Below are positions 5,189 through 64,000 of a DNA stretch of 64,000 nt, piece after piece. Made by a program: the position numbers and the translations under genes. The notes below the pieces were generated by a model. That model made no database searches, was not told the DNA's origin, and saw only the letters and a list, made by a program, of their open reading frames with translations. Source of the stretch: Leucoraja ocellata (Eukaryota); contig JAWMAR010000105.1 of the NCBI GenBank assembly GCA_036785375.1, forward strand, positions 5,456,001-5,520,000. The letters are read 5' to 3'. The number at the start of each line of letters is the position of its first letter. Position 1 is the first letter of the stretch.

Positions 5189-5391
5189 CAAGAAGAAGAT
5201 CTATTCCCCTCACATCAATAGTTTAGCCTCAGAAGGAAGTGAGCGATGGGAAGAGACAATGGTGCCCATCCAGGGCGATATGGATACACGTAATCATAGT
5301 CACCCTCTAATCTTGACCAAGTTGTTCAATGATTCAGAGAACTTGTTTTAGGAACTTGTTTAAGGCGTGAAAAATGCAGCAACCACACGGT

Positions 5392-5529
5392 CTTCTTCTT
5401 GCGTGTGGCGTGCACAGCCTAAAGTTGTAGGACAACTTGTTCTAATTGATCTTATTTGATTGTGCACGCCGGGTTGATTGCATTCTTCGAAACAAGGCGG
5501 ACCACGTGAAGGTTGCAATCTCCCACCCC
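5392..5529 (-). mobile_element. ~138-nt ribozyme-capped SINE-like retroelement, copy A
   Basis: Near-identical to 63864-64000. Has an (AAG)3 tail and flanking direct repeats aaccacacggt (5381-5391) and agccacagggt (5530-5540), 9/11 identical. Confidence 0.75.
5476..5529 (-). ncRNA. Second copy of the HDV-like ribozyme, with the catalytic C replaced by A
   Basis: Minus strand reads GGGGTGG GA GATTGCA ACC TTCACGT GGT CCGCCTT G TTTCGA AGAA TGCAATC. P3 is intact; J4/2 CGAA is AGAA at 5486. Confidence 0.75.
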
Positions 5530-5920
5530 AGCCACAGGGTGAGGAACAATCACGGTACGAGTTTCCAACCAAGTCAAGTCAAGTCACATTTATTTATATA
5601 GCACATTTAAAAAACAACTCTCGTTGGCCAAAGTGCTTTACATTTGTTATGAGAATAGCACAACAAAACAAACTACATACATATATACATGTAGCCCTCA
5701 CTCAGAGGACGTCAGGAAAGGCTGGTAAACCAGGCGAGGTTTACACCATAATATTTCGTGCATGAGTCAATGATACTGCCTGAGATTATGACACACCTCA
5801 GTGCTTCAGGATGCACACCCACACATGTCTCACGGCAATCGGCTGATGGAAAATGTCTGAAGAATCCTGTTTCAACAACGCTCCACTTGAGTACCATTTC
5901 TGAAGTGTTTCTCAACTACA

Positions 5921-5977: not shown

Positions 5978-6800
5978 AACCATATAACCATATAACCATA
6001 TAACAATTACAGCACGGAAACAGGCCATCTCAGCCCTACAAGTCCATGCCAAACAATTATTTTCCCTTAGCCCCACCTGCCTGCACTCATACCATAACCC
6101 TCCATTCCCTTCTCATCCATATGCCTATCCAATTTATTTTTAAATGATACCAACGAACCTACCTCCACCACTTCCACTGGAAGCTCATTCCACACCACTA
6201 CCACTCTCTGAGTAAAGAAGTTCCCCCTCATGTTACCCCTAAAGTTCTGTCCCTTAATTCTGAAGTCATGTCCTCTTGTTTGAATCTTCCCTATTCTCAA
6301 ATGGAAAAGCTTGTCCACATCAACTCTGTCTATCCCTCTCATCATTTTAAAGACCTCTATCAAGTCCCCTCTTAACCTTCTGCGCTCCAGGGAATAAAGA
6401 CCTAACATTCAACCTTTCTCTGTAACTTAGTTGTTGAAACCCAGGCAACATTCTAGTGAATCTCCTCTGTACTCTCTCTATTTTGTTGACATCCTTCCTA
6501 TAATTGGGCGACCAAAATTGTACACCATACTCCAGATTTGGTCTCACCAATGCCTTGTACAATTTTAACATTACATCCCAGCTTCTATACTCAATGCTCT
6601 GATTTATAAAGGCTAGCATACCAAAAGCTTTCTTTACCACCCAATCTATATGAGATTCCACCTTCAAGGAACTATGCACGGTTATTCCCAGATCCCTCTG
6701 TTCAACTGTATTCTTCAATTCCCTACCATTTACCATGTACGTCCTATTTTGATTTGGCCTGCCAAGGTGTAGCACCTCACATTTATCAGCATTAAACTCC
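5978..6800 (-). mobile_element. Young 5'-truncated CR1 LINE (copy 1 of a tandem pair)
   Basis: ORFs 6347-6817 and 6067-6408 (frameshifted RT C-terminus); (TATAACCA)n tail. Confidence 0.92.
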
Positions 6801-8125
6801 ATATAACCATATAACAATTACAGCACAGAAACAGGCCATCTCGACCCTTCTAGTCCGTGCCGAACACATAATCTCTCCTAGTCCCATATACCTGCGCTCA
6901 GACCATAACCCTCCATGCCCTTCCCATCCATATAACTATCCAATTTATTTTTAAATGATAAAAACGAACCTGCCTCCACCACCTTCACTGGAAGCTCATT
7001 CCACACAGCTACCACTCTCTGAGTAAAGAGGTTCCCCCTCATGTTACCCCTAAACTTCAGTCCCTTAATTCTCATGTCATGTCCCCTTGTTTGAATCTTC
7101 CCTACTCTCAGTGGGAAAAGCTTTTCCACGTCAACTCTGTCTATCCCTCTCATCATTTTAAAAACCTCTATCAAGTCCCCCCTTAACCTTCTGCGCTCCA
7201 AAGAATAAAGCCCTAACTTGTTCAACCTTTCTCTGTAACTTAGTTGCTGAAACCCAGGCAACATTCTAGTAAATCTCCTCTGTACTCTCTCTATTTTGTT
7301 GACATCCTTCCTATAATTAGGCGACCAAAATTGTACACCATACTCCAGAATTGGCCTCACCAATGCCTTATACAATTTTAACATTACATCCCAACTTCTA
7401 TACTCAATGCTCTGATTTATAAAGGCCAGCACACCAAAAGCTTTCTTTACCACCCTATCTACATGAGATTCCACTTTCAGGGAACTGTGCACAGTTATTC
7501 CCAGATCCCTCTGTTCACCTACATTCTTCAATTCCCTACCATTTACCATGTACGTCCTATTTTGATTTGTCCTGCCAAGATGTAGCACCTCACACTTATC
7601 AGCATTAAACTCCATCTGCCATCTTTCAGCCCACTCTTCCAACTGGCATAAATCACTCTGTAGACTTTGGAAATCCTCTTCATTATCCACAACACCCCCT
7701 ATCTTGGTATCATCTGCATACTTACTAATCCAATTTACCACACCTTCATCCAGATCATTGATGTACATGACAAAGAACAAAGGACCCAACACAGATCCCT
7801 GAGGCACCCCACTAGACACCTGCCTCCAACCCGACAAACAGCCATCCACCATTACCCTCTGGCGTCTCCCATTCAGCCACTGTTGAATCCATCTTGCTAC
7901 TCCTGCATTTATACCCAACAGTTGAACCTTCTTAACCAACCTTCCATGAGGAACCTTGTCAAAGGCCTTACTAAAGTCCATATAGACAACATCCACTGCT
8001 TTACCCTCGTCAATCTCCCTAGTAACCTCTTCAAAAAATTCAAGAAGATTAGTCAAACATGACCTTCCAGGCACAAATCCATGTTGACTGTTCCTAATCA
8101 GACCCTGTTTATCCAGATGCTTATA
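6801..8125 (-). mobile_element. Young 5'-truncated CR1 LINE with an uninterrupted 398-aa RT fragment
   Basis: ORF 6878-8074: SCLTNL...DFSKAFDKVPH...SGVPQGSVLGP...KYADDTK...; same tail as copy 1. Confidence 0.95.
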
Positions 8126-8130
8126 TATCT

Positions 8131-54775: not shown

Positions 54776-55234
54776 ACTCTGAATGCTTAAGGAAGGGGAA
54801 TGATCACTGGAGCGCAGCCCCTGATCGCCTGGACCTGTTGACTAAAGGCAGAGTTATCAGTGCCGAGGGACAGATGCCCAAGTTAGAGGAGTGTGGAGTT
54901 CTTGAAGAGTTGTAGAATTTCACAAGGCAAAACAGGGGATCTTAAAAGGATCGGGGGAAAAAATTGGAACTGGAATTTTTAAATTAAGGCTATTCATTAA
55001 TCCTATCATTGGAAACAATGCAGCTAGTTTTCAAAATTCAAATTCAGCCTTCTAACTTTCATCTCTTCACAGAGCACCTGATATGTTAACTAAACCGCTA
55101 TAGATATGGAAATCTGAGTTTTACAAGGAGTACAAGAAACAGCTCGTAATATTCAATTCCCTCAAATGGTTCTGGAGCTCACAATATTAAATAGTCTTTG
55201 AAGCATAAAACTGCAGAAGCCGGACATCTAAGAC

Positions 55235-55857
55235 AAAAAGGAGTCGAATATAGGAGCAAAGAGGTCCTTCTGCAGTTGTACAGAGCCCTAGTGAGACCAC
55301 ACCTGGAGTATTGTGTGCAGTTTTGGTCCCCTAATTTGAGGAAGGACATTCTTGCTATTGAAGGAGTGCAGCATAGGTTTACAAGGTTAATTCCCGGGAT
55401 GGCGGGACTGTCATATGCTGAGAGAATGGAGCGGCTGGGCTTGTACACTCTGGAGTTTAGAAGGATGAGAAGAGTTATCATTGAAACATTTAAGATTGTT
55501 AAGGGTTTGGACACGCTAGAAGCAGGAAACATGTTCCCGATGTTGGGGGAGTCCAGAACCAGGGGCCACAGTTTAAGAATAAGGAGTAAGCCATTTAGAA
55601 CGGAGACGAGGAAACACTTTTTCTCACAGAGAGTGGGGAGTCTGTGGCATTCTCTGCCTCAGAGGGCGGTGGAGGCAGATTCTCTGGATGCTTTCAAGAG
55701 AGAGCGAGATAGGGCTCTTAAAAATAGCGGAGTCAGGGGATATGGTAGGAACGGGATACTGATTGGGGATGATCAGCCATGATCACATCGAATGGCGGTG
55801 CTGACTCGAAGGGCCGAATGGCCTACTCCTGCACCTATTGTCTATTGTCTATTGTCT
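55235..55857 (+). mobile_element. CR1 3' fragment (intronic)
   Basis: ORF 55198-55782 GVEYRSKEVLLQLYRALVRPHLEYCVQFWSP...; (CTATTGT)n tail. Confidence 0.92.
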
Positions 55858-63863: not shown

Positions 63864-63917
63864 GGGGTGGGAGATTGCAACCTTCACGTGGCCCGCCCTG
63901 TTTCGACGAATGCAATC
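63864..63917 (+). ncRNA. Minimal HDV-like (CPEB3-type) self-cleaving ribozyme at the 5' end of a short repeat
   Basis: P1 GGGGUGG/CCGCCCU (first pair G.U), J1/2 GA, P2 GAUUGCA/UGCAAUC, P3 ACC/GGC (GGU in the other copy), L3 UUCACGU, G after P1', vestigial P4 UUUCGA, J4/2 CGAA with the catalytic-position C at 63907. Confidence 0.8.
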
Positions 63918-64000
63918 AACCCGGCGTGCACAATCAAATAAGATCAAATAGAACAAGTTGTCGTACAACTTTAGGCAGTGCACGCCATACGCAAGAACAA
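63864..64000 (+). mobile_element. Ribozyme-capped SINE-like retroelement, copy B (tail runs off the window end)
   Basis: Same 5' start GGGGTGGGAG and same body as copy A; ends CATACGCAAGAACAA. Confidence 0.75.

Follow-up and report, generated by a model that had tools for sequence, protein, structure and literature searches.

An old, decayed 138-base retroposon in a skate genome, with the two ends of a likely Vingi LINE and a predicted self-cutting head

NARTc and RIME are the short partners of L1Tc and ingi in trypanosomatids. According to the account given in PMC3383444, NARTc and L1Tc share their first 77 bases, which contain an HDV-like ribozyme cutting before position +1, as well as their last 30 bases; for NARTc and RIME together, the 3' part in common with the autonomous Ingi-group LINE is reported as the last ~30-40 bases (PMC3383444, PMC4035085). 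R2 SIDEs are likewise described as retaining just a ribozyme head and a 3' recognition signal (PMC3414825). The Vingi layout, as outlined in a 2026 review (PMC13708176), is compact: a single ORF encodes an endonuclease and a reverse transcriptase, and RNase H is absent.

The window, which is the 64,000-nucleotide stretch of Leucoraja ocellata DNA analysed here, contains at 5392–5529 a short element that reads as the first 77 and the last ~40 bases of a ~3-kb Vingi-type LINE from the same genome. We consider it probable (about 80%) that this is an old, decayed, non-autonomous retroposon of 138 bases composed of the two ends of a likely Vingi LINE, the head of which is predicted to cut itself at G1 before the RNA is copied by the LINE protein. 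The family represents a compact form of a design already known, the bipartite non-autonomous LINE, and a single copy of it is ordinary. The family does show how little of its LINE a vertebrate retroposon needs.

The copy at 5392–5529 and its target-site duplication

Direct reading confirmed the minus-strand copy described in the initial annotation, with G1 at 5529, an (AAG)3 tail and flanking 11-mers. It is composed as follows.

5392..5529, minus strand: non-autonomous retroposon copy, 138 bases, G1 = 5529, sequence read directly
5453..5529, minus strand: part matching the first 77 bases of the partner LINE, 88% identity to LINE copy L264
5436..5452, minus strand: 17-base linker without match in the LINE ends
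5401..5435, minus strand: part common with the LINE 3' end (last codons, stop codon at 5421-5419, short 3' UTR)
5392..5400, minus strand: (AAG)3 tail, common to element and LINE
5407..5470, minus strand: predicted 10-bp stem closing the body, 5470-5461 with 5416-5407 (-23 kcal/mol, computed without a shuffle control)
5530..5540, minus strand: G1-side copy of the target-site duplication, agccacagggt, ancestral state, adjoining G1
5381..5391, minus strand: tail-side copy of the duplication, aaccacacggt, with later changes at 5382 and 5388

The copy opens with GGGG at 5529, closes with (AAG)3 at 5392, and differs at five positions (5495, 5486, 5471, 5445 and 5405) from the majority of the copies selected by their 3' end. 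The region 5401..5435 likely functions as the recognition signal for the reverse transcriptase of the LINE. According to a flank search the flank is single-copy in the genome, apart from an inverted duplicate of the whole locus at a distance of 80 kb, with identities of 99.0% over 6 kb and 95.9% over 3.2 kb. This duplicate (locus L062) also contains both ribozyme lesions described below and both mismatches between the 11-mers. The only gene located in the window is GASK1A-like (FAM198); it runs from 61132 to 54107 on the minus strand in at least three coding stretches, its protein is 94% identical to the Amblyraja radiata counterpart, and the copy lies ~48.6 kb past its stop codon. Among the RNA sources listed none contains the locus of the copy, which speaks neither for nor against its transcription. 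The tail of another repeat starts at about 5570, and fragments of reverse transcriptases of common LINEs, which we take to be CR1-like, are present at 6347-8128 (minus strand) and 55195-55782 (plus strand).

The two 11-mers are identical at 9 of 11 bases, and the first base of the tail-side one overlaps the AAG tail. Taken alone, the copy obtains a duplication score of 6, which is under the cut-off (a score of at least 7, passed by 8 of 600 randomly re-paired flanks); only 1 of 600 re-paired flanks had, at the same position, at least 11 bases with no more than two mismatches. In organism E (run X9), 5302-5415 is covered by a contig of depth 36 that reaches 24 bases into the element. It shows nine differences in all, five of which are not itemised, and has G at both 5382 and 5388, so that the tail-side 11-mer becomes identical to the G1-side one (11/11). 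This shows that the target-site duplication claimed for this copy is real and has since decayed. Organism A has the same bases as the window at 5382 and 5388. Together these results indicate that the insertion predates the A/E split, and that the two mismatches are later changes to the tail-side copy. The site is filled in organisms A and E, and a contig of organism B, ending 43 bases from 5549, is compatible with a G1 junction that is filled. Among the joints listed for the five DNA runs none skips the element, so that no empty ortholog was seen; reads of organisms B, C and D do not cover the left flank. The copy by itself, a dated and very likely dead insertion, is of little weight; the insertion can be used as a shared marker among skates, and it provides a clean example of a readable ancestral duplication state.

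The predicted ribozyme fold of the head

The first 54 bases of the copy can adopt a predicted minimal HDV/CPEB3-type ribozyme fold with the following parts.

5476..5529, minus strand: predicted ribozyme fold, 54 bases; best Rfam matches are HDV families, below cut-off
5529-5523/5500-5494, minus strand: P1
5522-5521, minus strand: J1/2
5520-5514/5482-5476, minus strand: P2
5513-5511/5503-5501, minus strand: P3
5510-5504, minus strand: L3
5508/5493, minus strand: P1.1
5491-5487, minus strand: P4, reduced to 5 bases
5486-5483, minus strand: J4/2
5486, minus strand: catalytic C position (equivalent of HDV C75 and CPEB3 C57), here A
5495, minus strand: second lesion, P1 pair G2-C35 changed to G-U

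All 18 pairs of the nested double pseudoknot (P1, P2, P3, P1.1) form in this copy, one of them weakened to G-U, and the G-U pairing of G1 at the cut site and the U...G in L3 are both present. As annotated initially, P3 is perfect, ACC (5513-5511) pairing with GGU (5503-5501), and CGAA has become AGAA at 5486. The catalytic C of J4/2 is thus absent from this copy, and it is present in 10,500 of the 11,471 matches to the family. In agreement with the role assigned to this position, the sub-cut-off HDV matches align 5486 with the C of J4/2. A second lesion had been overlooked: the base at 5495 turns the P1 pair G2-C35 into a G-U. Mutation of the C in the CPEB3 or HDV ribozyme is stated in section 6 of PMC9901934 not to be rescued, and C75U is given as inactive in PMC13635239; inactivity of the C-to-A change specifically is not separately documented in these sources. 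On the basis of the lost catalytic C and the P1 lesion, both read from the sequence, the copy is very likely catalytically dead.

When the window was searched with Rfam, no match exceeded the cut-off of any family. The best sub-threshold matches among 4,227 families were HDV ribozymes, with scores for this copy and for an intact copy of 13.3 and 21.7 bits versus 44 and 50. Comparison of the heads of four related families argues for the fold: in nine hand-picked heads standing for four lineages, 98.1% of the cells are paired and 13 of the 18 pairs have changed on both sides, versus 39-50% paired when the partners were slid, and 0 of 500 shuffles reached the pairing score. The unpaired core (L3, J1/4, J4/2) is that of the Rfam CPEB3 consensus, and the 5' end of Vingi-2_Gav, as given in the supplement of PMC5786205, has the same L3, J1/4 and J4/2 as the skate head. 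Three common variants of the element, at positions 8, 32 and 45, all preserve the fold. Every pair and core base is retained in 19 of 36 complete heads and in 9 of 18 of the 3'-selected set, the second head set having been chosen on part of the head and hence being biased. A P4 of only 5 bases could let G37 mispair with the catalytic C.

The window holds exactly one other copy of the element, and two matches were obtained in 0 of 100 shuffles.

63864..64000, plus strand: other element copy, catalytic C intact, P3 change U29C (window 63892), perfect 13-base duplication

This copy is located 2.7 kb upstream of the GASK1A-like gene and antisense to it. U29C was counted in 4 of 43 independent copies, representing both subfamilies, and an inactivating effect of the change is therefore not established; moreover, three of these four still begin exactly at G1, and U29C therefore looks inherited rather than lethal. 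The view that the two copies in the window carry different inactivating changes thus holds for the loss of the C at 5486, which very likely kills the ribozyme, and is doubtful for U29C.

The family and its partner LINE

A 22-base core pattern gave 11,471 matches in the Leucoraja ocellata assembly, corresponding to a family of ~11,000 copies, and the exact 30-mer of the 3' end gave 3,127. Many family matches come as near-identical pairs, which suggests uncollapsed haplotypes or segmental duplication at these loci; the assembly probably holds uncollapsed haplotypes, and copy counts may therefore be inflated. The 3'-selected copies differ from their own majority by 4.4% on average (n=22), and the family is present in all five organisms examined.

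The initial annotation had named copies without target-site duplications as a finding that would speak against it. Such duplications turned out to be common. One scoring at least 7 is present at 18 of 21 full-length 3'-selected copies, 14 of the 18 adjoining G1; the 21 came from the first 30 of the 3,127 3'-end matches and include three pairs of near-duplicate loci. For a second set the number was 13 of 14 full-length copies (19 fetched), all adjoining G1, and for the best 30 matches to the query, a set biased by the flank of the query, it was 23. The duplications are 9-14 bases long, with lengths centred on 11-12, and mostly start with A or G. Moreover, 19 of 58 duplication-bearing copies lie in other repeats for which a paralogous empty site exists, and for 16 of these 19 a gap-free alignment is obtained with a single copy of the target, not with two. 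Numerous scattered copies with duplications of their own attest to retrotransposition of the element itself. A tandem array of ~2-kb units, each with a CUAA-type copy, is located near 19.26 Mb of contig C1, with a mirror near 19.42 Mb; it is amplified passively, and it is not an obvious source locus, as it contains no tRNA or Rfam gene. Two copies (L069, L078) are rearranged: the orientation switches at the repeated P2 sequence, so that head and body point in opposite directions.

A search pattern that required the 3' end of the element but left the linker free yielded 323 matches. At 24 of 30 fetched loci these are preceded by a common coding sequence, the frame of which stops inside the shared part and which ends in a Cys-x-Cys...His...Cys motif. 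Among 40 longer loci, one (L264) has the 5' end of the LINE, which matches the first 77 bases of the element at 88% and is followed by an endonuclease frame. Both ends of the element are therefore common with an autonomous-type LINE of the same genome and the coding part is absent, as is proper to a bipartite element. All 12 fetched LINE 5' ends retain the catalytic C in the CUAA form, so that the CGAA form to which the copy at 5392–5529 belongs is probably derived. Patterns for the parent LINE that assumed another junction yielded nothing beyond short copies, deleted or truncated ones. Another derivative of the same LINE, internally deleted as well and with a longer 5' part (L181, besides weaker matches), implies that internal deletion occurred more than once.

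No intact frame was found in the skate LINE loci examined, all of which are broken. The closest intact relative (67% identical) encodes a single protein of 1,019 aa with endonuclease and reverse transcriptase and without RNase H, and the LINE relatives in general are ~1,000-aa single proteins of this composition (intact: P0013, P0017). Judged by this architecture and by one published 5' end, rather than by a tree, the partner LINE is likely a member of the Vingi clade. The small share of its LINE that the element needs, 77 + ~40 bases, bears on Vingi-based RNA gene-insertion tools, which are described as using the native 5' and 3' UTRs (PMC13708176).

A LINE returned by the endonuclease family search was unrelated and had no match to the head. 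An origin as a SINE headed by tRNA, 5S or 7SL was rejected as well: simple patterns gave no A or B boxes, Rfam gave no match, and the head is a LINE 5' end. Two further LINE families were seen. One (L302, L303) is of Vingi type and has long open frames and a (TAAA)n-like tail, its reverse transcriptase being ~42% identical; the other (L194-L223) is young, with open frames up to 1,268 aa, and unrelated to the ends of the element. In 18 regions located upstream of metagenomic LINE relatives, a strict ribozyme descriptor gave no match and a relaxed one, for which the positive control passed, gave 1 doubtful match; Rfam detected no ribozyme in 12 of the metagenomic relative loci. A search anchored on L3 did reveal decayed heads in 6 of 80 such loci. 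The same L3 core with a longer P4 is seen in L324, L345, L346, L365, L367 and L372, and many LINE relatives end, as the skate element does, in CA(T/C)ACG followed by a microsatellite.

The 5' junction, the lost catalytic C and known ribozymes

According to the reading we favour, a source copy would be transcribed by read-through or from an internal promoter, and the head of the RNA would self-cleave 5' of G1. The endonuclease/reverse transcriptase of the LINE would then bind the shared 3' end, nick the target and prime on the AAG tail; reverse transcription would proceed up to G1, and a staggered second cut would create the ~11-base duplication. Neutral hits at 5486, 5495, 5382 and 5388 would have followed insertion of the copy at 5392–5529.

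The initial annotation equated the inserted cDNA with the 3' product of self-cleavage. The part of this claim that stands is that a retroposed insert starts at G1 of an HDV-like fold; self-cleavage as the origin of that end is not established, since an internal promoter starting at +1 predicts the same junction. Such a promoter could set the 5' end by itself, the fold being weak or a dispensable relic in the short element, and Pr77 of L1Tc/NARTc is reported to act as a promoter as well as a ribozyme (PMC3383444). Even copies in which P3 has an A-C mismatch begin at G1, which is in line with this alternative, and so are data from one poly(A) RNA run of organism D. In this run 899 reads (about 6% of the run) aligned to the element, 93% of which continue into unlike sequence, i.e. 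host transcripts, and 271 reads (140 + 131) extend past G1. No pile-up of read ends was detected at G1 or anywhere on the element, at a sensitivity that would not register a pile-up below a fifth of the depth. The run thus does not support cleavage in steady-state mRNA, although cleaved products may be short-lived. Against a dispensable fold stands its covariation across four families with the unpaired catalytic positions fixed, and also the conservation of the fold in all common variants of the short element itself. Moreover, no subfamily without the catalytic C has expanded, and simple patterns revealed no Pol III A or B box in the element. We therefore regard a promoter-defined 5' end with an idle ribozyme as improbable. 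That the abundant RTE LINE mobilises the element or gave rise to it can practically be dismissed. This LINE, reached through DUF6451, also ends in (AAG)n, and 16 of 19 bases match near its 5' end, but these represent the generic P3-L3 core, and 50 RTE loci displayed no 3'-end similarity whereas the Vingi-type LINE shares both ends. Full-length members of the RTE family measure ~3.15 kb (L152:871-4024, L163, L171); at their 5' end a P1-like stem of 7 bp encloses a P3-L3-like core, in what may be a degenerate HDV-like fold.

For the loss of the catalytic C, both post-insertion decay and selection against active ribozymes had been put forward. Of the 11,471 matches, 971 (8.5%) have a base other than C at the catalytic position, and 1,268 (11.1%) have another base in place of the loop C located three bases upstream of it. 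In a symmetric test, which required both CpG guanines to be kept and the other C to be intact, the catalytic C was lost 458 times and the neighbouring loop CpG C 479 times (p = 0.51), a comparison that dilutes an effect confined to sense introns, does not register insertions removed as a whole and treats the loop C as neutral. Thus, genome-wide there is no excess of catalytic C loss, which supports decay and leaves selection unsupported. An active ribozyme would cut the host transcript, and it could be argued that the C at 5486 was lost for this reason: C-to-A, with 12 cases among the first 100 losses listed (hand count), is the less frequent change, and RNA reads of organism D cover the likely sense strand of the element less deeply (depth ~200 versus 320 antisense, the strand being assigned by the usual library convention), which could reflect loss of sense copies from transcripts. 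Besides the equal losses genome-wide, however, the likely-sense reads are not richer in heads without the catalytic C (18/201 versus 50/308 antisense; few loci, not independent), the copy is placed ~48.6 kb downstream of the GASK1A-like stop codon, in a window where no other gene was located, and it has decayed at four other places too, two of them within the duplication. Selection is accordingly a very improbable cause here, and the loss at 5486 looks like ordinary decay. The family offers a direct genome-wide test of selection against ribozymes in host DNA, negative so far.

The sister elements tie the CPEB3 ribozyme to a retrotransposon clade. With the Rfam CPEB3 model, 56 matches over the cut-off were obtained in the same skate genome (59 candidates scored), reaching up to 64.7 bits, and none in 14 control genomes. 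The matches inspected (L396-L410) belong to at least two families of sister elements, and in 8 of the best 15 a Vingi-type frame follows on the same strand. We infer from this that the mammalian CPEB3 ribozyme descends from such an element. A wider proposal, to which we give slightly more credence than doubt, is that Vingi-type LINEs generally, as a group, begin with CPEB3-type ribozymes, that the mammalian CPEB3 ribozyme is a domesticated Vingi 5' end, and that the skate family is a stripped 54-base version at ~ten thousand sites, of which perhaps a third to a half can still cut. If true, the family would be a natural mutational library, and it would also burden a vertebrate genome with a large number of RNA-cutting sites that have gone unrecognised. 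Literature searches at the level of listings and the opening lines of abstracts showed no paper on this family, none joining Vingi, CPEB3 and ribozymes, and none on the origin of the CPEB3 ribozyme; some of this may already be found in Ruminski 2011, Kojima 2011 or Repbase.

The mammalian CPEB3 ribozyme (RF00622), as presented in PMC9901934, is identical to the skate head in L3, the G-U of J1/4, the CGAA of J4/2 and the single C-G of P1.1. All helices of the skate head differ from it in sequence and P4 is lost, which places the head below the cut-off of the CPEB3 family. A short J1/2 and a reduced P4, as here, are reportedly found in the minimal HDV-like ribozymes of Riccitelli 2014, which are said to come from microbiome sequences and not from a vertebrate retroposon. 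Unlike the skate element, R2 SIDEs are described as site-specific in rDNA, 529 bases long and of another clade, with cleavage shown in vitro (PMC3414825). Compared with NARTc/RIME as described in PMC3383444 and PMC4035085, the skate element has a vertebrate host, 138 instead of 263 bases, a P4 that is almost absent, an (AAG)n tail, about 10,000 dispersed copies and a ribozyme that is only predicted here; like them, it shares both ends with an autonomous LINE, in their case of the Ingi group. PMC5786205 describes bipartite non-autonomous LINEs, among them derivatives of Vingi-1_EE with internal deletions; as here, a Vingi-type parent is represented by its 5' and 3' ends only.
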